This document shows, in pieces, positions 16,094 to 44,193 of a stretch of 64,000 bases of DNA. The stretch's first letter is position 1, and the number at the start of each line of letters is the position of its first letter. The stretch spans positions 136,734 to 200,733 of the IMG/VR virus record IMGVR_UViG_3300020463_000001; one strand, written 5' to 3'. A model generated the notes under the pieces. The model had not been told where the DNA came from. It made no database searches and was given only the letters and a program-made list of their open reading frames with translations. Both the position numbers and the translations under genes were made by a program. The stretch comes from a virus (taxonomy: Duplodnaviria > Caudoviricetes).

Positions 16094-18412
16094 ATGACCG
16101 AAGTTACCGTCTCCAAGAATTCCAAGAGTCTTCTTGCTCGTCTACTTGCGGAAGAAAACATTCGCGTCGAACACTCTTCAGAAGTTGTGACAGCGAGTTT
16201 CAATGTAGAGACTCGACTATTACTTCTTCCTATCTGGAAAGATGAATCATATACTCCTGATATATATGACCTTTTTGTTGGCCATGAAGTTGCTCACGCA
16301 TTATACACTCCAAGTGATCTAGAAGTTCTAGAAGAAGCCATGAAGCGATCCAACCATGCGTTTCTTAACGTAGTGGAAGATGCGCGAATTGAGAAGTTAA
16401 TGAAGCGAAAGTTTCAAGGTCTTCAGGCTCCTTTCAAGAATGCGTATCAAGATCTTTACGAGAGAGACTTTTTCAGTCTTAAGGGTCAACCTATTCAATC
16501 TCGCAATTTCATTGACCGCATCAATCTCTTCTTTAAGTTGCGATATGCGCTGAACCTATACGCACCATCCATCTTCAATTCAGAAGAAATGACTTTCATT
16601 CGCAGGATCGATGATGCAGAAACTTATGTGGAAGTTGCGGATATCTGTGAAGATCTTTACAAGTATCTGAAAGAGAAGCAAGAAGAACAACAGCAACAGG
16701 CACAAATGTCTCCCAGTTCTTCTAATTCTGAAGGAGAACCTCAAGAAGGCGAGACTTATGAAATGCCTTCTGATGATGAAGAAGAAGAATCTGAGGGGTC
16801 AACAGAGGCTTCTGGATCCGGAGAAGAAGAATCAGAAGAAGGGCCCAAGGAATCTTCTGGATCATCTTCTGAAGAACAACCAGAAGAGTCTGGAGAAGAG
16901 ACCGAAGAACAATCTACCGCATCATCTTCTGAAGAAAAGAAAAATCCTCAAGATGGAAATCAGTCAAGCGTCTTTACCGATGAGTTCACTTCAGAGACTA
17001 GTGAGTCTCTAGAAGAAAATCTCAAGGAGATGGTTAATGAAAATACTCGCGAAAGTGTTTACATCAATCTTCACAGTAACTATGAACTAGAGAAGTATGT
17101 CCATGACTATACAGAAGTTCAGGCAGACTTTGAACGCGAGGTATCTGCAGTAGAAGTACTTCATCGTCAACAATATAGTCACGGTGATGCACCAGAGTTA
17201 AATTTTCCTTCTCTGAAAGAATTGATCTCAGAAAACTCAAAGACCATTTCTTATCTTGTAAAAGAATTCGAAATGAAGAAAGCTGCTCGCGCACAGGCAT
17301 TGAGTTCAGAATCCAAGACTGGTGCGATCAACACTTCCAAGTTGTGGAGTTATCAAGTCAACGAAGATATTTTCCTTCGTAAGACTAACACTCCAGACGG
17401 CAAGAATCATGGTATGGTTATGGTAGTAGACTGGAGTGGATCTATGGGATCTACTGTTCTTAACACTGTCAAACAGACCATCGTTCTCGCAACATTTTGT
17501 AAGAGAGTTGGAATTCCTTTTGAGGTCTACAACTTTACCAGTGTTAATAAGAAGGCTGTTCCGGAACCAAGTATCTTGCCATTATCGGAAGGAGACATTC
17601 TTCTAAGGAGTATCGCATTGCGAAATACGTTATCCAGTAGAATGAGTGGCAAGGTCTTTAATCAGGCCTGTCAAAACTATCTGAACATTGCTGCGATAGT
17701 AGGGAATGCGATAGGGGCATACTACATTCCTTATCGATTGATGCATACTGCAGTCTCTGAGGATCAGTTTGGTGCCACTCCTACTAATCAGGCACTGGTT
17801 CTTCTAGACAGAGTGATTCCTAAGTTCCGCAAAGAAAATTCTTTAGAGAAGGTTAACTTAGTTCTATTGACTGATGGAGAACCTACCGATCATCTTACTT
17901 ATAAGAAAATAGATGATGACTATCCAACGGAACGAACAACTAGATATGCTTCGAACATTTATGTGCGAGATACATCTACTAATGAGACTTATCGCATGGT
18001 TGCTGAGAATGAGTATAGTGGAATTGACGGTTTCGACTCTTCTAAGTTTCTTATCAAGATCTTGCGAGAGAAGCATGGGATCAATTCTATTGGATTCTAT
18101 CTCTTGAATTCTCATGGGAGAACTGAGATTAAACGAGTCATTCAAAGATTTGTTAACTACAATCTACAACCATACATGGAAGAGTATCGCACTCTGCGAA
18201 AAGAATTCAACAAGAATAACTTCTTTGTTGCGACTAACTCAGGACACAATGAGTACTATATCATCAATGCGAAGGTAGATCCTAAGACTGATGAGTTGGA
18301 TGTAAATTCATCTATGTCAAAGGCTGCAATCGCAAAAAGCTTCATGAGTCACAATAGATCTAAGGTTGTAAACCGACAATTATTAAATAAATTTGTCGAT
18401 TTAGTAAAATAG
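16094..18412 (+). CDS. cobT: CobT-like protein: HExxH domain, acidic linker, vWA domain
   Basis: VGHEVAH, NVVEDARIEK, Glu/Ser-rich linker, MIDAS VVDWSGSM and LLTDGE; adjacent to MoxR-type AAA. Confidence 0.8.
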   Translation: MTEVTVSKNSKSLLARLLAEENIRVEHSSEVVTASFNVETRLLLLPIWKDESYTPDIYDLFVGHEVAHALYTPSDLEVLEEAMKRSNHAFLNVVEDARIEKLMKRKFQGLQAPFKNAYQDLYERDFFSLKGQPIQSRNFIDRINLFFKLRYALNLYAPSIFNSEEMTFIRRIDDAETYVEVADICEDLYKYLKEKQEEQQQQAQMSPSSSNSEGEPQEGETYEMPSDDEEEESEGSTEASGSGEEESEEGPKESSGSSSEEQPEESGEETEEQSTASSSEEKKNPQDGNQSSVFTDEFTSETSESLEENLKEMVNENTRESVYINLHSNYELEKYVHDYTEVQADFEREVSAVEVLHRQQYSHGDAPELNFPSLKELISENSKTISYLVKEFEMKKAARAQALSSESKTGAINTSKLWSYQVNEDIFLRKTNTPDGKNHGMVMVVDWSGSMGSTVLNTVKQTIVLATFCKRVGIPFEVYNFTSVNKKAVPEPSILPLSEGDILLRSIALRNTLSSRMSGKVFNQACQNYLNIAAIVGNAIGAYYIPYRLMHTAVSEDQFGATPTNQALVLLDRVIPKFRKENSLEKVNLVLLTDGEPTDHLTYKKIDDDYPTERTTRYASNIYVRDTSTNETYRMVAENEYSGIDGFDSSKFLIKILREKHGINSIGFYLLNSHGRTEIKRVIQRFVNYNLQPYMEEYRTLRKEFNKNNFFVATNSGHNEYYIINAKVDPKTDELDVNSSMSKAAIAKSFMSHNRSKVVNRQLLNKFVDLVK

Positions 18413-19656: not shown

Positions 19657-20001
19657 ATGTCGGCAGAATTAAATAAACTAATCCAACAACAGTTGGGAGA
19701 AATTAGCAACTATCCGATTGAATACAAGTTCAATGAAGATGAGTTGCTAAAAGAACTTAAAATATACATTGACAAAACCTACTCAATGCATTATTCTAAG
19801 AACCAGTTTCAATCGACAGAGTTTATCATTGACTCTGGCCATGGAACTGGATTTTTAATTGGGAATATTATGAAGTATGCCCAGAGATATGGAAGGAAGG
19901 GATCACCAGAAGAGTGGCGAAGAGATCTGATGAAGATCATACACTACTCTCTTTTGGCCCTTTATAATCATGACAATGACGGAGATTTAAATGATGATTA
20001 G
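19657..20001 (+). CDS. Conserved phage protein (DUF3310-like)
   Basis: HYS..QSTEFI..G.GF.IGNIMKYAQRYGRKG..DLMKIIHY. Confidence 0.6.
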   Translation: MSAELNKLIQQQLGEISNYPIEYKFNEDELLKELKIYIDKTYSMHYSKNQFQSTEFIIDSGHGTGFLIGNIMKYAQRYGRKGSPEEWRRDLMKIIHYSLLALYNHDNDGDLNDD

Positions 20002-20686
20002 TGAAGATACTCAAACTATACTAAGGAACTTTTCGGGTATTAACCCTTCAATTTTATTGACTGGTAATAATCGAATTGCCACAATGTCAGTAATGCGAAA
20101 CATTCTCGCAACTGCTGATATCGAAGAAGAGTTTCCAGAAGAATTTGGCATCTATGATTTGCCTCGGTTCTTGGGAAACCTTGCGGTATATCCTGAGTTG
20201 AACTTTGGTGACACTTCTGTAATTATGGCAGATGGGTCTAAGACCTACAAGTTCATGGCTGCGGAACCAAGTGCGATTATCCATCCTACAACTATGTTTG
20301 CGATGGAAGGATCTAGGAACAACCCTGAGAACGTGAAGGCGACTCCTGAGTATGATATCAATGTCACTCTGCCCAGTTCTACTCTTGCGACAATCCAAAA
20401 AGTCGCTGCGATAAATTCTTTACCAGACTATGGATTGATCACCGAAGGTGGAGAGATATTCTTTACTGCGTTAGATAAGAAGTCTGATACAACTGATATC
20501 GCAAAAGAGCCAGTTGGGAGTAGCAATGTCAATTTCAAGATGTACTTCAAGTCTGAGAATCTTAAGTTGATTGAAGGCGATTATAATGTGAGTGTGTCTC
20601 GCAATGCGATATCTACTTTCAGACATCAGACTAGGCCCATTCAATACTGGATCACTCTGGAATCAGATTCTCAGTATGATATTTAA
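19991..20686 (+). CDS. 45: Sliding clamp gp45
   Basis: T..ILRNFSGINPSIL, EEFPEEFGIYDL..FL; position before gp44. Confidence 0.92.
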   Translation: MMISEDTQTILRNFSGINPSILLTGNNRIATMSVMRNILATADIEEEFPEEFGIYDLPRFLGNLAVYPELNFGDTSVIMADGSKTYKFMAAEPSAIIHPTTMFAMEGSRNNPENVKATPEYDINVTLPSSTLATIQKVAAINSLPDYGLITEGGEIFFTALDKKSDTTDIAKEPVGSSNVNFKMYFKSENLKLIEGDYNVSVSRNAISTFRHQTRPIQYWITLESDSQYDI

Positions 20687-20697
20687 GGCGAAGTCTA

Positions 20698-21636
20698 TTG
20701 AAAGATTTATTATTATGGGTGGAGAAATATCGTCCACAAACAATTGATGACTGCATTCTCCCCGAAGAGTTGAAAGATACTTTTCGGGAGTTTGTGGCCA
20801 ACAAAGAAATTCCAAACCTACTTCTTAGTGGTGCGCCAGGCGTCGGTAAAACGACTGTAGCGAAGATATTATGCAAAGAGGTAGGTTTGGATCACCTTAT
20901 GATAAACGGGTCTGAGGATGGAAATATAGACACTCTTAGAACCAAAATAAGGCACTATGCGTCTACCGTGTCATTCTCTGGTGAAGGTAAGTGTGTGATT
21001 CTGGATGAGGCAGATTATCTCAATCCACAATCCACACAACCAGCCCTGCGTGGGTTCATCGAAGAGTTTGCGGGCAACTGTAGATTCATTCTTACTTGTA
21101 ACTTCCGCAACCGAATTATCGATCCATTACATAGTCGATGTTCGGTAGTGGAGTTCAAGATTCCTAAATCAGAGAAACCAAAACTCTCAGCTGGATTCTA
21201 TGAAAGAATCAAAAACATTCTTGCAGAAGAAGGCATTGAATACAAACAGAAATCTCTGTTGGAACTTATCAACAAGTACTATCCTGATTGGCGTAGAGTT
21301 CTGAATGAACTTCAACGATACTCTGTCGGCGGAGAGATAGATGAAGGGATTCTAGTTAATGTCAGTGAGTCTAGTCTTAAGAGATTAAGTAATACTCTCA
21401 AGGATAGAAAGTTCACCGATATGCGAAAGTGGGTTGTCGATAATCTTGACAACGATCCTTCAACAATCTTCCGGACAGTCTATGACGGATTGTATTCTTA
21501 TATGGAACCACAATCTATTCCACAGGCTGTGGTTACGATTGCTGATTATCAACACAAGTCCGCCTTTGTTGCGGATCAAGAAATCAACATGGTTGCGTGT
21601 TTGACTGAATTAATGGTCGAGTGCGATTGGAAATAA
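20698..21636 (+). CDS. 44: Clamp loader large subunit gp44
   Basis: LWVEKYRP, GAPGVGKTT, ILDEAD, SRC motif. Confidence 0.95.
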   Translation: MKDLLLWVEKYRPQTIDDCILPEELKDTFREFVANKEIPNLLLSGAPGVGKTTVAKILCKEVGLDHLMINGSEDGNIDTLRTKIRHYASTVSFSGEGKCVILDEADYLNPQSTQPALRGFIEEFAGNCRFILTCNFRNRIIDPLHSRCSVVEFKIPKSEKPKLSAGFYERIKNILAEEGIEYKQKSLLELINKYYPDWRRVLNELQRYSVGGEIDEGILVNVSESSLKRLSNTLKDRKFTDMRKWVVDNLDNDPSTIFRTVYDGLYSYMEPQSIPQAVVTIADYQHKSAFVADQEINMVACLTELMVECDWK

Positions 21637-21637
21637 T

Positions 21638-22021
21638 ATGTATGATCTATTTAAAGATTATGTCCCAGCTTTGTCTCATACAAAAGAGAACCTTTTAGAC
21701 AACGAGGATGAACTATGGGAGAAATCTTACCAACCATACTTGATAAATAAAACATTCTCATACTATATGGACACTATCATGTATGCGAATGAGATGAATC
21801 AATATTCTATGATAGATAATAAACTTCAATTCGACTATTTACTAAATAGTGTAAGACCAAGGAAAAGATTTTCTCCTTGGGCTAAAAAAGAAATCAACTC
21901 TGATATTGATTTGATTAAAGAATATTATGGGTACAGTAATAGAAAAGCTGAAGAAGCGATGTCCATTTTATCTAGTTCGCAGTTAGAATATATCAGAACT
22001 AAACTATACAAAGGCGGATAA
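21638..22021 (+). CDS. 62: Clamp loader small subunit gp62
   Basis: YQPYLIN..ANEMN..QFDYLLNSVRPRKRFSPWAK..KEYYGYS. Confidence 0.92.
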   Translation: MYDLFKDYVPALSHTKENLLDNEDELWEKSYQPYLINKTFSYYMDTIMYANEMNQYSMIDNKLQFDYLLNSVRPRKRFSPWAKKEINSDIDLIKEYYGYSNRKAEEAMSILSSSQLEYIRTKLYKGG

Positions 22022-22022
22022 T

Positions 22023-22433
22023 GTGGATTTTCTGAACATAGAAGACTTAGTAGAGGTGACTCTAAAAGATCCGGAAGATTTTCTCAAAATACGAGAAACT
22101 CTGACACGGATTGGTGTGTCTTCAAAAAAGGAAAAGAAGCTTTATCAATCCTGCCACATTCTGCATAAACGTGGAAAATACTATATCGTCCACTTCAAAG
22201 AATTATTCAAATTAGATGGAAAACCATCAGACTTTTCTGACAATGACAGAGCAAGAAGAAACGCTATTGTCAATTTATTAGAAGAGTGGAAGTTAGTTGA
22301 TGTTCCAGTGAAAGATGTTATGGATCCTGCCCCATTGTCTCAAATAAAAATCATTTCGCATAGAGATAAATCTGAATGGGAACTGGTGCCCAAGTATAAT
22401 ATCGGCAGAAAGACTAAACCAGTTGACAAGTAA
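22023..22433 (+). CDS. regA: Translational repressor RegA
   Basis: DFLKIRETLTRIGV..LYQSCHILHKRGKYYIVHFKELF.LDG. Confidence 0.95.
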   Translation: MDFLNIEDLVEVTLKDPEDFLKIRETLTRIGVSSKKEKKLYQSCHILHKRGKYYIVHFKELFKLDGKPSDFSDNDRARRNAIVNLLEEWKLVDVPVKDVMDPAPLSQIKIISHRDKSEWELVPKYNIGRKTKPVDK

Positions 22434-22461
22434 GAAATAAACCTGTATAGTGTTATAAATA
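22423..22461 (+). promoter_or_regulatory. Tandem sigma70 (TTGACA-17-TATAGT) and late (TATAAATA) promoters for hsp20
   Basis: TTGACA 22423-22428, TATAGT 22446-22451, TATAAATA 22454-22461. Confidence 0.75.
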
Positions 22462-22465
22462 TAAA

Positions 22466-22551
22466 TGAGGATTGCGTAAAGAGTCCTCACTTAGTCTTGC
22501 GACAATGGTCGGAGACAATATATAACTCGCTTATACAAGGAGATAACAATG
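22466..22551 (+). promoter_or_regulatory. Three-hairpin 5' UTR, ROSE-like RNA thermometer candidate
   Basis: Hairpins 22466-22489 and 22494-22516; CTC(G)CTT-ATAC-AAGGAG at 22526-22542 pairs the SD with a bulged G. Confidence 0.6.
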
Positions 22552-22995
22552 GTTACAATGAGAACCTTAGCTGAGTTCGATCCATTTTTGAAGAGAACTA
22601 TCGGATTTGATAGTTTGTTTAGAACATTAGATTCTATGACCGAAGGAACTCAGGACAACTATCCGCCCTATAACATCGTCAAGAACGATAAATTATATCG
22701 AATAGAAATTTCGGTATCAGGCTTTTCGGAAGAAGATCTTTCTGTAGTACATGAAAATTATGTACTTACTGTATCTGGTTCAAAGACAACACAAGAACCC
22801 GAGCAAGAGTATCTTCATAAAGGAATTGCATCTAGAGACTTCGTTAAGAAGTTTACTCTATCTAAAGATCTAGTTGTTGTGGATGCCACAATTAACGACG
22901 GCCTTTTGGTAGTCACTCTAGAATTGGTTGTTCCAGAAGAGAAAAAACCAAGAGTTATTGACATAACAAGTTCCCCTAAATTACTGGTGGACTAA
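22549..22995 (+). CDS. hsp20: Small heat-shock protein Hsp20 (IbpA-like)
   Basis: IGFDSLF, NYPPYNI, YLHKGIASRDF, A.INDGLL. Confidence 0.92.
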   Translation: MVTMRTLAEFDPFLKRTIGFDSLFRTLDSMTEGTQDNYPPYNIVKNDKLYRIEISVSGFSEEDLSVVHENYVLTVSGSKTTQEPEQEYLHKGIASRDFVKKFTLSKDLVVVDATINDGLLVVTLELVVPEEKKPRVIDITSSPKLLVD

Positions 22996-23006: not shown

Positions 23007-23025
23007 GGGGGTACTCTGTACCCCC
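23007..23025 (+). terminator. Stem-loop after hsp20
   Basis: GGGGGTAC-TCT-GTACCCCC; U-tract is weak. Confidence 0.55.
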
Positions 23026-23048
23026 TCTATAATTTACCGGAGACTACA

Positions 23049-23231
23049 ATGGAAACGCATGAACAACTTATCGTTTTATTAGAACAATACAAATTTGAGA
23101 ATGAGAAGTTTGCGAGAGGAAATAAATCTGCTGGCGTTAGAGCTCGTAAGGCACTCATGGAAATAATCAAGGCTTCAAAGGTTCGTAGATCAGAGATTCA
23201 AGAAGAAAAGGAATGGATAGTCAAGAAGTAA
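23049..23231 (+). CDS. Histone H1-like (Hc1-type) small basic protein
   Basis: ENEKF..GNKSAGVRARKALMEI.K..K..R.EIQE.K pattern. Confidence 0.65.
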   Translation: METHEQLIVLLEQYKFENEKFARGNKSAGVRARKALMEIIKASKVRRSEIQEEKEWIVKK

Positions 23232-24208: not shown

Positions 24209-26704
24209 ATGAGATTTTACACTAATGTTCAGTGTGTAAAAAACAAAATCTTTCTCAGAGAAATTGATGGAAATAAACGTCGAGAAGTCAAGATAGACTA
24301 CTCGCCGTCTCTGTTTATATCTGGAAAGAAAGATTCTTTATACAAAACTCTAGACGGAAAACCTCTAGATAGAGTCCAGTTTGGTTCTATCGCAGAGGCC
24401 AGAGAATTCAAAGAGAAGTATAAAGACATAGATAATATGAAGGTATATGGCCATGACCAATATCTTTATCCGTTCATTTCTGATGAATATCCTTCCAATA
24501 TTGAGTATGATTTCTCTAAACTCAACATCTGCAATATCGATATTGAGGTAGAATGCGAAACTGGATTCCCAGAACCAACCGAAGCAATAGAAAGAGTTAA
24601 CGCCATCACTATGAAGATGGGCGGATTCTATGTTGTTCTTGGTCTTGGTGACTGGGAAAATAAAGACAATCTTCCCAGAATAAAGTACATGAAGTTCAAG
24701 GATGAGCACAGTCTTCTCCGCAATTTCTTACAAATTTGGGAAAGTTCTAAGATTGATATTGTGACTGGTTGGAATGTAAACCAGTTTGATATGACTTATC
24801 TTGTCAACAGAATTGAAAAACTCTTTGGCGAAAAAGAAGTCAGAAGAATGTCTCCTTGGGGAATGTATTCTAGGATAGAAAAAGTTTTGTTCGGTAGAAC
24901 ACAAACTCAAGTCAAACTACCTGGCCTCGCCATTATAGACTATCTAGATTTATACAAGAAGTTTACTTATGTGAACCGTGAAAGTTATTCTCTGGACTTT
25001 ATTGCCCATGTCGAACTTGGCGAAAGAAAATTAGATCACTCAGAATTTGAGCAGATGCATCTGTTCTATAAATTAGACTACCAGAAGTATATCGATTATA
25101 ATATCAAAGATGTAGAGTTGGTTGATAAACTTGAGGATAAACTGAAGTTGATGGAACTTCTAGTGACTCTTGCTTATCAGTCTAAAGTTAATTTTGAAGA
25201 TGTTTTCTCTCCTGTTAAGATATGGGATACAGTCGCGTTTGATGAACTAAAGAAAACTAAAACTGTAGTTCCCAATAAATCTAGAAATGAAAAATCTGAA
25301 TCTTTCGAAGGGGCTTATGTAAAAGATCCAGTTGTTGGGCTGCATAAGTGGGTAGTATCATTTGACTTAAATAGTCTATATCCTCATCTAATCATGCAGT
25401 ATAATATCAGTCCAGAAACATTGATAGAAGGAGAAATTATACCAACTTCCATCGATGAATTGTTAGAAAAGAAGACAGATCTATCTGGACTAAAAGATGA
25501 AACTGTCTGCCCTACTGGTCATATGTTTTTAAAATCAAATAAAGGATTTCTTCCCAAACTGATGCAGAGGATGTATGATGATCGTGTCCAGTATAAGAAG
25601 GAGATGATACAGTGGAAACAAAAGAAACAATCAGGCCAAGGTGATCCTGTAGAGATAGATAAGAAAATATCTCAATTAGATAATAAACAGATGGCCGCTA
25701 AGATTCTTCTTAATTCCGCTTATGGTGCGTTGGGAAATCAGTGGTTTCGATATTATGATATTCGACAGGCAGAATCTATAACTACCGCTGGTAAGTTGTC
25801 TATCAAGTGGATTGAAAATAAGGTCAATGATTACTTTAATAAACTAATGGGCAATGAAGAACCGAAGAGTTATGTTATTGCGAGTGATACTGATTCAATC
25901 TATGTTGCCCTTGGTGATTTTGTGGAGAAAGTATTTAAGGAAGTTCCCGAAGATAGTAAAGTGGTAGACTTTCTTGATACAGTCGCAAAGGATAAGATAG
26001 AACCTTATATCGATAAGTGTTATCAGGAACTTGCAGACTATATGAATGCATATGATCAGAAGATGTTTATGAAGCGAGAAGTGATTGCATCTAAGGGCAT
26101 ATGGACTGCAAAGAAGAGATACATTCTTAATGTTCACGATAACGAGGGAGTTAGATACAAGTCTCCGGAACTTAAGATTATGGGAATAGAGGCTGTCAGA
26201 TCTTCGACACCACAGGCCTGCAGAGAAAAGATTAAAGAATCACTAAAGATCATCATGAACAGTTCGAATGAAGATCTGATGAAGTTCATTATAGATTTTG
26301 AAAAAGAATTTAAAACATATCCGGTGCCGGATATATCGTTTCCGCGAGGAGTCAACGGAATAGAAAAATATAAAGACTCAAAGGATGTATTTAAAAAGGG
26401 CACTCCTATTCATGTAAAGGGTGTTCTCTTTTATAACTTATTGATAGATCAATATAAATTGGGTAATATATATCAAAAGATAAAGAATGGAGATAAGATT
26501 AAATTTGCATATCTTAAAACTCCAAACCCAATACAAAATAATGCAATTGCGTTAATGTCTAGTTTGCCCAAAGAGTTCAATCTAGAAAACTATATTGATT
26601 ATAACATACAATTTGAAAAATCGTTTTTAGAACCAATTAAAACAATCACAGATTCTATTGATTGGCAATTGAAAAAACAATACACACTTGATGACTTTTT
26701 TTAG
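24209..26704 (+). CDS. 43: Family B DNA polymerase gp43
   Basis: DIEVE, GWNVNQFD, SFDLNSLYP, KILLNSAYGALG, ASDTDS, KKRY; uninterrupted. Confidence 0.98.
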   Translation: MRFYTNVQCVKNKIFLREIDGNKRREVKIDYSPSLFISGKKDSLYKTLDGKPLDRVQFGSIAEAREFKEKYKDIDNMKVYGHDQYLYPFISDEYPSNIEYDFSKLNICNIDIEVECETGFPEPTEAIERVNAITMKMGGFYVVLGLGDWENKDNLPRIKYMKFKDEHSLLRNFLQIWESSKIDIVTGWNVNQFDMTYLVNRIEKLFGEKEVRRMSPWGMYSRIEKVLFGRTQTQVKLPGLAIIDYLDLYKKFTYVNRESYSLDFIAHVELGERKLDHSEFEQMHLFYKLDYQKYIDYNIKDVELVDKLEDKLKLMELLVTLAYQSKVNFEDVFSPVKIWDTVAFDELKKTKTVVPNKSRNEKSESFEGAYVKDPVVGLHKWVVSFDLNSLYPHLIMQYNISPETLIEGEIIPTSIDELLEKKTDLSGLKDETVCPTGHMFLKSNKGFLPKLMQRMYDDRVQYKKEMIQWKQKKQSGQGDPVEIDKKISQLDNKQMAAKILLNSAYGALGNQWFRYYDIRQAESITTAGKLSIKWIENKVNDYFNKLMGNEEPKSYVIASDTDSIYVALGDFVEKVFKEVPEDSKVVDFLDTVAKDKIEPYIDKCYQELADYMNAYDQKMFMKREVIASKGIWTAKKRYILNVHDNEGVRYKSPELKIMGIEAVRSSTPQACREKIKESLKIIMNSSNEDLMKFIIDFEKEFKTYPVPDISFPRGVNGIEKYKDSKDVFKKGTPIHVKGVLFYNLLIDQYKLGNIYQKIKNGDKIKFAYLKTPNPIQNNAIALMSSLPKEFNLENYIDYNIQFEKSFLEPIKTITDSIDWQLKKQYTLDDFF

Positions 26705-42700: not shown

Positions 42701-44193
42701 CCACTGTCTCTGGCTACGGAATTACTGATGCATTTGATGGAGATTATAATAGTCTTACAAATCAACCAGTAATCCCCGAAGGTGCAGATCTTACAGGGTA
42801 TGCAACAGAAATTTATGTTAATGATCAGGGTTTTATCACAGGAATCTCATTCGCAAATGTATCCGCAAAACCAACTACTATTGCTGGTTATGGAATAACT
42901 GATGCCTTCTCTGGTGCATATGGAGATTTGACTGGAGCTCCTACTTTATTTGACGGTGCATATTCATCGCTTACAGATGCACCTACTGCATTAAGTAGTT
43001 TTTCTAACGATACAAACTTTATTGATTTGACCAGAGTAAGTGTCTCCAGTGTCGCTGCAAGTGGTTCTGGTTCTCTTAACTATAATAACGCAAATGGAGT
43101 ATTTACATTCTCTCCTGCAGATTTGAGTTCTTATTTGACTTCTTCTGATCTATCAACATACGCAACAGAGTCTTTTGTCTCTACTCAAGTTGCAAATGTT
43201 GTTAATTCTGCGCCAGAGGCATTAAATACTCTTAATGAACTTGCTGATGCTTTGGGAGATGATCCAAATTTTGCAACAACTATTTCAACTCAAATAGGAA
43301 CTAAGGCAGCTCTTGGAGATTTGGATGTCAACACCGTATCTTCAAGTGGTTCTGGTTCTCTTAATTATGATAGTTCTACTGGTGCGTTTACATTTGCACC
43401 AGCAGATTTGAGTTCGTTTTTAACTTCTTATACCGAGACAGATCCAGTATTTACTGCCCATCCTTCCTCTGGAATTACGACATTCCACATCCAACAATGG
43501 AATACTGCATATACTTGGGGAGACCATAGTACTGTAGGATATTTAACTACAGAGACACAATCAGACTATAATCAAACAGATAGTAGTGCTGTAGATTTTA
43601 TCAAGAACAAACCTTCTTTGTTTGACGGTGATTATGATTCTTTGACTAATAAACCATCTTTATTTGATGGCGATTATGGAAGTTTGAGCAATCAACCGTC
43701 ACTATTTTCTGGTGCATATGCGGATTTATCTGGAAAACCTACTATCCCATCAGCACAAGTTCAATCAGATTATGATCAGACAGATGATACTGCGGTAGAT
43801 TTTATTAAGAATAAACCAACATTATTTGATGGCGACTACAGTTCTCTGACTAATCCGCCTTCACTATTCGATGGGGATTATGGTTCATTGACTAATACAC
43901 CTTCTCTATTCGATGGGGATTATGATAGTTTAAGTAATAAACCTACATTGTTTGATGGAGACTATACAAACTTAACAAACCAGCCAACCATACCAACTAA
44001 CAATAATGAGTTGACTAATGGTGCTGGTTATCTTGCTTTAGTTTCTGTACCATCAACATCTAAGGGAGCGTCAGGAGATGCCTCTGGAGATGTCGCGATG
44101 GATAATGATTATATATATAGATGTACTGCGAATTATACTGATGGAAATGCCGATATTTGGAAGAGAGTAGAATTCTCAACTGATACTTGGTAA
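39718..44193 (+). CDS. Long tail fibre-like protein built from tandem repeats
   Basis: Four APETLxTLNELAxALGxDPNFATT motifs; many KPTTVSGYGITDAFDG and FDGDYxSLTNKP repeats. Confidence 0.8.
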   Translation: MSYRYNPLSGKIEFVGISTSDGTSLEATINEKVANLVDSAPTTLDTLNELAAALNNDPNFATSTATLLGEKALATDLASLAASLNQVATSGSYADLTGTPTLVNIATSGLYADLTGAPDLSDVATSGSYADLTGTPTNVSDFTNDEGFITDYTVTESDVTGHEASLTLTESQISDLQSYLTTVAFADLTSKPTTVSGYGITDAFDGDYGSLTNKPDLFDGAYSSLSGAPTNVSTFTNDSGYITGYTVTESDVTGHESALTITESQISDLGSYLVAADLSSYATQTYVNAQGFITGYTVTESDVTGHESALTITESQISDLTPYLVSADLNGYATETFVGSQGYITGYAVTESDVTGHQTALSITESQISDLQSYLTTVAFADLTSKPTTVSGYGITDAFDGDYGSLTNKPTIPTVPTTVSSFTNDSGYITGYTVTQDDLSGLTITESQITDLGAYLVASDLSTYALTTYVDAQVAGVVNSAPETLNTLNELATALGNDPDFATSTANLIGTKANTADLSSVATSGAYADLSGVPSLFDGAYSSLSGAPTNVSTFTNDSGYLTTVSFDDLSSSPTTVSGYGITDAFSGAYGDLTGVPTNISTFTNDSGYLTTISYAEVTGKPTLFDGAYSSLSGVPTNISDFTNDSGYLTTVAFADLTSKPTTVSGYGITDAFDGAYSSLSGAPTNVSTFTNDSGYLTTVSFEDLTSKPTTIDGYGITDAFDGAYSSLSGVPTTVSTFANDSGYLTTVAFADLTSKPTTVSGYGITDAFDGAYSSLSGAPTNVSTFANDSGYLTTVAFADLTSKPTTISGYGITDAFDGDYTNLTNRPTIPTVPTALSSFSNDTNFITLDESQSGVSVTSVSASGSGSLNYNNSSGVFTFAPADLSSYLVASDLSTYALKTYVDTQVAGVVSSAPETLDTLNELAAALGDDPNFATTVSNQIGTKAELGDFSVSTVAESGAGSLNYNNAGVFTFAPADLSSYLTTVAFADLTSKPTTVSGYGITDAFDGDYNSLTNQPVIPEGADLTGYATEIYVNDQGFITGISFANVSAKPTTIAGYGITDAFSGAYGDLTGAPTLFDGAYSSLTDAPTALSSFSNDTNFIDLTRVSVSSVAASGSGSLNYNNANGVFTFSPADLSSYLTSSDLSTYATESFVSTQVANVVNSAPEALNTLNELADALGDDPNFATTISTQIGTKAALGDLDVNTVSSSGSGSLNYDSSTGAFTFAPADLSSFLTSYTETDPVFTAHPSSGITTFHIQQWNTAYTWGDHSTVGYLTTETQSDYNQTDSSAVDFIKNKPSLFDGDYDSLTNKPSLFDGDYGSLSNQPSLFSGAYADLSGKPTIPSAQVQSDYDQTDDTAVDFIKNKPTLFDGDYSSLTNPPSLFDGDYGSLTNTPSLFDGDYDSLSNKPTLFDGDYTNLTNQPTIPTNNNELTNGAGYLALVSVPSTSKGASGDASGDVAMDNDYIYRCTANYTDGNADIWKRVEFSTDTW
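40225..43990 (+). repeat. Intragenic repeat arrays in the fibre gene
   Basis: For example, 138 bp are identical at 40225-40362 and 40810-40947. Confidence 0.85.

Follow-up and report, generated by a model that had tools for sequence, protein, structure and literature searches.

A ROSE-like leader upstream of hsp20 in an uncultured marine T4-like phage as a probable translational control element

The IMG/VR record IMGVR_UViG_3300020463_000001 (Duplodnaviria; Caudoviricetes) is complete, with 200,733 bp and direct terminal repeats, and the stretch analysed here (positions 136,734 to 200,733 of the record; 64,000 nucleotides, hereafter the window, in which all coordinates are counted) is a part of it. 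The gene order of the window is T4-like, with genes for the sliding clamp (19991–20686), the large (20698–21636) and small (21638–22021) subunits of the clamp loader, RegA (22023–22433), a small heat-shock protein (hsp20; 22549–22995, + strand), and DNA polymerase (24209–26704). The hsp20 product is an IbpA-type protein of 148 aa (Pfam HSP20, E = 1.4e-17), being 39% identical to Escherichia coli IbpA over the full length. A spacer of 115 nt separates hsp20 from regA, and the adjacency of the two genes is common to the window and cyanophage S-PM2. On the 3' side of hsp20, an intrinsic-terminator-like stem-loop with a T-rich tail (23007–23035, + strand; stem-loop, 23007–23025; 6 of the 8 bp in the stem are G-C, and TCTATAATTT comes after it) would complete hsp20 as an independent unit with its own promoters, leader, and terminator. 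Directly past this element lies a gene for a 60-aa protein (23049–23231, + strand) with a match to Pfam Hc1, the chlamydial histone H1-like family (E = 8.5e-12).

The clamp and the polymerase of the window are only 39–51% identical to their cyanomyophage counterparts, the identity of the clamp to that of pelagiphage HTVC008M is 39.5%, and a megablast search with 20 kb from the window found no match among cultured phages. The gene psbA was also not found in the complete genome. From the divergence of the clamp and the polymerase and the absence of psbA, the window is therefore assigned to an uncultured marine T4-like phage, whose host is probably non-cyanobacterial. A 12-kb contig of the metagenome-assembled genome (MAG) ‘Alphaproteobacteria bacterium TMED93’ (NHEU02000035.1) encodes an Hsp20 88% identical to that of the window, behind a leader with three hairpins almost the same as those described below; the contig is probably that of a phage binned into the MAG, or else a hint at the host.

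Two promoter-like sites are found upstream of the hsp20 leader, as the preliminary description had proposed. One is a sigma-70-like site, TTGACA-17-TATAGT (22423–22451, + strand), agreeing with 11 of 12 consensus positions and regarded as a candidate early promoter; the other, read from the sequence, is TATAAATA (22454–22461, + strand), the consensus of T4-type late promoters. Both words are invariant in all eight leaders of the clade, in which Hsp20 is down to 76% identical, and in many other hsp20 loci of phages a TATAAATA-like word immediately precedes the first hairpin. By analogy with T4 biology, TATAAATA would act as a late promoter and, if this locus follows the rules of T4, would set the start of the late transcript at roughly the first base of hairpin 1; we infer that hsp20 is transcribed from such sites. 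A sigma-32 (RpoH) heat-shock promoter is the typical context of ROSE-like elements, though not a strict defining feature, and was not found at this locus, where the sigma-70-like site and TATAAATA stand instead. CTTGCTT was considered as a sigma-32 promoter and rejected, since it is only 4–7 nt from the Shine–Dalgarno sequence (SD) and leaves no space for a –10 box and a leader. CCCATNT-like words were seen only in bacterial leaders, and the phage leaders appear, from sequence comparison, to have swapped the sigma-32 context for signals usable by the phage.

The unconstrained minimum-energy fold of 22466–22560 consists of exactly three hairpins, in agreement with the three-hairpin leader described previously, and the centroid fold likewise has three hairpins with the SD in the last. 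This fold, in which the three hairpins lie within the leader (22466–22548), has –23.4 kcal/mol (z = –2.75), and 1 of 200 shuffled sequences was equally stable. Hairpin 1 (22466–22489, + strand) is a clade-specific 5'-proximal stem-loop, with 8 bp and an 8-nt loop in the minimum-energy fold. Hairpin 2 (22494–22516, + strand), GUCUU-G-CGAC/AAUG/GUCG-GAGAC with G22499 bulged, is the equivalent of hairpin I of the Rfam family ROSE_3. Hairpin 3 (22526–22542, + strand), CUC-G-CUU/AUAC/AAG-GAG with 6 bp, contains the SD: the anti-SD CUCGCUU (22526–22532, with G22529 bulged) is connected by the loop AUAC (22533–22536) to the SD AAGGAG (22537–22542), which ends 6 nt ahead of the ATG at 22549. Within it, UCGCU (22527–22531) is predicted to pair with AGGA (22538–22541), leaving the single bulged G22529, so that the fold reproduces the SD pairing that had been read from the sequence. 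The pattern CT[CT]GCT-N3-9-AGGAG occurs once on both strands of the 64-kb window, with 0.155 occurrences expected.

Nearest-neighbour energies at 10, 20, 30, and 37 °C are –15.5, –13.4, –11.2, and –9.8 kcal/mol for hairpin 1, –14.7, –12.4, –10.1, and –8.5 kcal/mol for hairpin 2 (still –4.3 kcal/mol at 55 °C), and –5.1, –3.8, –2.6, and –1.7 kcal/mol for hairpin 3, the energy of which reaches about zero near 50 °C. Deletion in silico of the bulged G of hairpin 3 gives –5.5 kcal/mol at 37 °C. In hairpin 3, the lower C22526–G22542 pair is kept and the loop-proximal pairs are U-A and U-A, without an upper G-C clamp; the SD hairpin of a near-member of ROSE_3 from a genome of the order of Alcanivorax (L294) has about –5 (–5.1) kcal/mol at 37 °C, much stronger than the –1.7 kcal/mol of the window. 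Among the 45 SD-bearing genes of the window at 20 °C, the SD of hsp20 is the fourth most occluded (probability of being unpaired, 0.06, versus a median of 0.47). More occluded SDs at this temperature include those at 17444 (a 322-aa ORF; probability unpaired, 0.00) and 19991 (the sliding clamp; 0.02).

The SD motif was surveyed in the best 80 IMG/VR loci encoding relatives of Hsp20 (40–97% identity) and in five cultured phages (pelagiphage HTVC115P, Syn9, S-PM2, P-SSM3, and Pseudomonas phage Paride). All of the 60 distinct leaders (one of them, L073, with its start codon re-set 33 nt upstream for this count) carry CUYGCU(U), a 3–7-nt A/U-rich loop, and (A)AGGAG just 5' of the start codon, a regularity that is not explained by chance. 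In an alignment of 53 leaders, the UYGCU core and the SD show little or no variation, with T, G, C, and T of the core invariant, and the motif is kept though the proteins have diverged to about 40% identity. In the reverse test with 80 IMG/VR places carrying AACTCGCTT-N3-7-AAGGAG, an Hsp20 ORF follows directly on the 3' side in 62, 8 are cut by the contig end, 5 stand ahead of other genes with the upstream hairpin still present, and 5 are apparent chance matches inside coding sequence; the specificity of the motif for hsp20 in IMG/VR is 78–88%. Non-hsp20 genes that follow a two-hairpin leader (G-bulged hairpin plus AACUCGCUU-loop-AAGGAG) in IMG/VR contigs are located at L173:1910-2496 (–), L178:1388-1624 (–), L214:744-992 (–), L237:2087-2323 (–), and L205:1496-1710 (+), and their products are an AhpC/TSA peroxiredoxin (Pfam E = 4e-30), a 71–75-aa protein found in three contigs and matching no Pfam family, and a 63-aa protein.

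Contigs from RNA libraries of four marine studies, 90–97% identical to the window, span the leader and hsp20 of close relatives; contigs of this kind are no proof of transcription or of its strand, level, or ends, and the greater depth seen for the hsp20 contig in one RNA run was not used as evidence. The differences listed in hairpin 3 of these contigs (A in place of C22536, and an additional A behind 22534) both lie in the loop, and none in the stems. Two variants of the leader were observed besides. In L008–L012, L047, L056, and L075, the spacer contains GUCAU(A), complementary to (U)AUGAC at the start codon, by which the AUG is drawn into a longer SD hairpin, as is the case in the long ROSE elements of the classical type. 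In L006 (158–228) and L007, the Hsp20 of which is 76% identical to that of the window, hairpin 2 is followed by an extra perfect hairpin, CCUCGCU/UUAA/AGCGAGG, ahead of the SD hairpin, which gives these leaders a second copy of the anti-SD word and an anti-anti-SD strand. An alternative pairing, GCGA-GGCC-UCGC, could free the SD in these two leaders and would be a possible switch rather than a simple zipper.

The hairpin upstream of the SD hairpin is located 3–16 nt 5' of the anti-SD in nearly all leaders and follows a common plan, with an outer stem of 4–12 bp, one 5' bulged G, and a C-rich inner stem starting with C. A G-bulged hairpin with at least 7 pairs is present in 81% of 59 unbiased phage leaders, as compared with 0.75% of shuffled sequences. 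For the analysis of covariation, a covariance model (R1) was built from a seed of 33 Syn9-like cyanophage leaders, to which the window does not belong, and 48 R1 matches were aligned to it. In the upstream helix, each of the 7 pairs is changed on both sides, and 97.7% of the cells are paired; this alignment is fitted to the structure of the model and so favours it, and an independent parse and the shuffle control agree with the result. When the 3' partners were slid by 1–3 columns, the pairing over both helices dropped to 50–64%, and no shuffle attained the observed covariation score. The R1 match in the window begins at 22509, so that its hairpin 2 is poorly aligned and stays outside the covariation table, because the inner stem is CGAC instead of CC. 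In hairpin 1 of the clade, a compensatory change from GAGGA/UCCUC to GAAGA/UCUUC (one G-C to A-U double change) occurs in L006 and L007, and a G-C to G-U change that keeps the stem occurs in L004.

The SD helix behaves differently in the same alignment. Four of its pairs never vary, the Y position forms U-G in 21 and C-G in 19 sequences, and no pair of hairpin 3 is changed on both sides, the only changes being those from U-G to C-G. Such near-invariance is expected, as one strand of the helix is the SD. Covariation across phage hsp20 leaders, proposed earlier as a check of the structure, thus bears out the upstream hairpin and gives no both-sided change in the SD hairpin, in which the pairing would rest on the conservation of the anti-SD sequence and on precedent. 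From a plain MAFFT alignment of 53 leaders, RNAalifold retrieved no more than 3 pairs, as the covarying hairpin is misplaced by sequence alignment, and the model-based alignment was used instead. An operator for RegA, the product of the upstream gene, was set aside, for the motif also occurs in podoviruses and bacteria. The conserved bulged G of hairpin I (hairpin 2 in the window) has no role in a pure thermometer model and is a candidate recognition feature. In leaders of Alcanivorax and relatives (L124, L126, L133, L144, L153, and L157), a G-bulged hairpin, for example CAGCGGAU-G-CC..GG-GGUCUGCUG, is located about 60 nt before the ibpA start, with a different SD region (GAGGA, without UYGCU); hairpin I hence seems to be conserved independently of the ROSE motif.

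As for the relation to known RNA families, a search of the whole window against Rfam at gathering thresholds found only two tRNAs. ROSE_3 (RF02523) matches the window at 22506–22554 with 13.4 bits (E = 3.5), below its gathering score of 43, and gives the same 13.4 bits at this element in a search of the whole genome; ROSE (RF00435) and ROSE_2 (RF01832) have no match at E <= 10 in 22300–22700, whereas ROSE_2 scored 100.4 bits on the E. coli ibpA leader as a control. The covariance-model search with the ROSE families, suggested beforehand as a check, accordingly yielded a sub-threshold match to one family and none to the other two. A second ROSE_3 match of 13.2 bits at about 43232–43260 of the window lies inside a coding region and was discarded as chance. 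Related leaders also score below 43 bits with ROSE_3: an IMG/VR relative (L071), 25.8 bits; the leader of a marine alphaproteobacterial single-cell genome (L289), 27.9 bits; and L294, 37.8 bits. Only a single sub-threshold match was found with ROSE_3 in 61 genomes of the order of an Alcanivorax genome, which are therefore a poor source of reference members. The same kind of leader in L071 (421–499) gave a weak match to the Rfam motif freshwater-2 (RF02980; 25.7 bits versus a cut-off of 49.9), the consensus of which has AAGGAG...AUG as its 3' part and may represent a related leader family; our literature search found no paper on this motif.

The ROSE_3 consensus, ugCGgGAU-G-CCG/AAgU/CGG-GUCcCGca for hairpin I and CUcGCuGA/uuau/UCaGgAG for hairpin II as shown by cmscan, agrees with the phage leaders in the bulged-G hairpin I and in the geometry of SD and anti-SD. 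With R1, the window element scores 24.4 bits (E, about 5e-4; 5.9e-4 in 233 kb) as the sole match in the 200-kb genome, R1 finding no second copy of the leader there. The ibpA leaders of marine alphaproteobacterial single-cell genomes are the top R1 matches in those genomes with 29–38 bits, and the E. coli ibpB and ibpA leaders score 23.3 and 13.4 bits, respectively. The closest bacterial homologues of the window Hsp20 are alphaproteobacterial; A/T-rich marine alphaproteobacteria have practically the phage leader, behind a CCCATNT-like word, and G+C-rich alphaproteobacteria have the classical AACGCUU..AGGAGGUUGU form.

ROSE-like elements in the sense of Waldminghaus and Narberhaus, as quoted in later papers (PMC11182007, PMC3669281), have 2–4 hairpins in the 5' UTR with the SD in the last one, an imperfect pairing of U(U/C)GCU with the SD with a predicted bulged G, and a position 5' of a gene for IbpA or a class A small heat-shock protein (sHsp); the leader of the window, with its three hairpins, shows all of these features. 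Of those characteristic of the short elements, a G-C-rich hairpin I of predicted high stability is present, and G-C pairs enclose the SD/anti-SD core on the lower side only, not on both sides. A significant R1 match directly 5' of hsp20 also places the leader in the phage hsp20 leader family. On these sequence and model comparisons, the leader is a homologue of the ROSE-like ibpA/ibpB leaders, closest to the short two-hairpin type (ROSE_3), and fails formal membership in the Rfam family. The ROSE-like identity assigned to it in the preliminary description is consequently upheld by the architecture, the UYGCU:SD pairing, the sHsp gene, the conservation, and the R1 link to E. coli ibpA/ibpB, and not by the Rfam thresholds.

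From the predicted structure and its conservation, the covariation seen in hairpin 2, and homology to the ROSE-like leaders, we consider it probable that the leader is a phage-borne ROSE-like translational control element, homologous to the proteobacterial two-hairpin ibpA/ibpB leaders, which opens with warming and probably also upon the release of autorepression. In the proposed mechanism, the mRNA would be made from the phage-usable promoters (sigma-70-like and T4-late-like) and not from a host sigma-32 promoter, and the two stable 5' hairpins would probably shield the mRNA and steady its fold. In the weak hairpin 3, the anti-SD CUCGCUU would pair with AAGGAG around the bulged G, so that the closed form limits 30S binding in the cell and its opening raises translation. 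The trigger would be warming, as in the classical thermometer mode, by which translation of hsp20 would come under temperature control, as judged by homology; a second trigger would probably be the drawing of Hsp20 onto aggregating proteins, by which autorepression would be released. The energies fit two stable hairpins and one labile hairpin, as probed in Pseudomonas (PMC3669281), those of the phage leader being nearest-neighbour values only. With no more than 6 bp, –1.7 kcal/mol at 37 °C, and no upper G-C pair, the SD hairpin might be outcompeted by the strong AAGGAG at ambient temperature; judging from the model energies, appreciable repression by the hairpin would be confined to low sea temperatures or would need help.

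Such help could come from Hsp20 itself. IbpA of E. coli, Cedecea, and Vibrio binds the ibpA 5' UTR and represses its own translation (PMC10474464; bioRxiv 10.1101/2020.04.20.050740), which requires R93, for which no other residue can substitute, an aromatic side chain at Y34, and basic ones at 97 and 98 (PMC10474464); the authors point out that alphaproteobacterial IbpAs likewise retain R93 and Y34 (PMC10474464). The leader might then be mainly an autogenous operator, at which Hsp20 blocks its own translation until it is titrated by aggregating proteins and temperature acts only indirectly. The window Hsp20 has Y, R, K, and K at the positions equivalent to Y34, R93, R97, and K98 of IbpA, and among 138 phage Hsp20s, 136 retain the equivalent of R93 and 137 have an aromatic residue at that of Y34, although the arginine could be kept for the chaperone structure alone, and RNA binding is known from gamma-proteobacterial IbpAs and not from sHsps of phages or alphaproteobacteria. 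The bulged G of hairpin 2, with the frequency given above (81% versus 0.75% of shuffles), would be left unaccounted for if this hairpin were only a scaffold, and it could serve in recognition; with –1.7 to –3.8 kcal/mol, the SD hairpin may depend on a protein clamp for repression; and a lytic phage meets protein overload in every infection and heat shock rarely. As the main function of the leader, this reading is possible though doubtful, and it is compatible with the thermometer reading. In view of the conserved bulged G and the kept residues, the release of autorepression by aggregation is treated as a serious co-mechanism beside the opening of the hairpin by warming.

A further-reaching version is put forward still more tentatively, as speculation that we would not expect to hold. 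The twin G-bulged hairpins would together be the Hsp20 operator, forming an aggregation sensor that is placed on phage promoters, works independently of the host sigma-32, and meters the chaperone for the burst of virion proteins, with the thermometer behaviour secondary in phages. If the operator reading is true, the leader on the genes for the peroxiredoxin and the small proteins would represent a portable stress-translation module of marine phages.

It is improbable that the hairpins act mainly on the stability or processing of the mRNA (protection from RNase E or a transcription pause), with the SD pairing having no regulatory effect. Hairpins 1 and 2 are indeed stable (–9.8 and –8.5 kcal/mol) and would be the first elements of the late transcript, provided that its start is a few bases past TATAAATA, the SD hairpin is weak, and a stabilising hairpin I was proposed by Krajewski et al. 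(PMC3669281); this reading, however, leaves unexplained the invariant anti-SD heptamer at a fixed short distance from the SD in front of proteins only 40% identical, and the sole variable position of the stem, at which U and C alternate, each able to pair with G. That the leader is a non-working relic of a captured bacterial ibpA gene or a chance match is very improbable: marine alphaproteobacterial ibpA genes do have nearly the same leader and single 13-bit ROSE_3 matches do arise by chance, but the leader is found in every sampled phage lineage with compensatory changes in hairpin 2, some sign of purifying selection on the stems, and a promoter replaced by the phage type, and the motif is largely hsp20-specific in IMG/VR (78–88%) against about 0.155 chance matches expected per window.

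The probable ROSE-like control element discussed above stands on hsp20 in every sampled marine phage lineage, including the model cyanophages S-PM2, Syn9, and P-SSM3. In model cyanophages, hsp20 is a conserved gene. If the leader works, phages keep a post-transcriptional, sigma-32-independent control of a chaperone, and the output of a phage protein would be tied to sea temperature or to the proteotoxic load during infection. The phage leaders also extend the ROSE family to very short, A/U-rich forms that are missed by the Rfam models, and they share a bulged G in hairpin I for which the current thermometer model does not account.

With regard to known systems, our literature search found no published ROSE-like element in a phage and no paper linking ROSE-like elements to phage hsp20, consistent with the earlier remark that no phage ROSE element had been characterised. 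Only three phage RNA thermometers had been reported according to a paper of 2024: those of lambda cIII, SPbeta blyA (fourU), and the sigma-70 gene of a gut Caudoviricetes phage (fourU) (PMC11182007, PMC10586365). They resemble the present leader as cis-acting 5' RNA structures gating phage translation by temperature, and differ from it in belonging to other structural classes, none being ROSE-like and none standing ahead of a chaperone gene. Compared with the autoregulation of IbpA, which is known only for gamma-proteobacterial IbpAs, the phage system, known from sequence alone, has a protein of the same family, a leader of the same kind, and the equivalents of the critical residues kept in Hsp20. 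The E. coli ibpB leader shares the core CUCGCUU-loop-AAGGAG and a GCUC-G-CC...GG-GAGC hairpin with the phage leader, whereas the E. coli ibpA leader (ROSE_2, RF01832) is longer and its model has no match on the window. The ibpB leader, located in the ibpA–ibpB intergenic region, is reportedly a thermometer characterised by Gaubig et al. in 2011. The ibpA leaders of marine alphaproteobacterial single-cell genomes have nearly the same two hairpins, for example GUAGAC-G-CC...GG-GUCUAC, a spacer, and CUUGCUU-AAUA-AAGGAG, and their IbpA proteins are 42–45% identical to the window Hsp20; they differ in having on the 5' side a CCCATNT-like word, which resembles a sigma-32 –10 box, and not the phage promoters.

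The closest characterised counterparts are the short ROSE-like ibpA leaders of Pseudomonas, in which hairpin II melts between 25 and 42 °C and suffices for thermoregulation, and hairpin I, rich in G-C, stays unmelted and has a possible stabilising effect on the mRNA (Krajewski et al. 2013; PMC3669281). In these two-hairpin leaders, the AUG is unpaired and G-C pairs flank the core, and in P. putida the upper G-C pair is needed for repression (PMC3669281). In contrast to them, the leader of the window has phage promoters (sigma-70-like and TATAAATA) in place of the sigma-32 promoter, an extra 5' hairpin, and an SD hairpin of 6 bp with U-A at the position of the upper clamp, which is predicted to be much weaker. 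In common with them, its hairpin I is G-C-rich and has a bulged G on the 5' side ahead of C-C(G), its spacer is A/U-rich, U(U/C)GCU of its hairpin II is paired with the SD and leaves a bulged G, its AUG is unpaired, and an ibpA-type sHsp gene lies on its 3' side; it likewise combines one stable hairpin with one labile hairpin.
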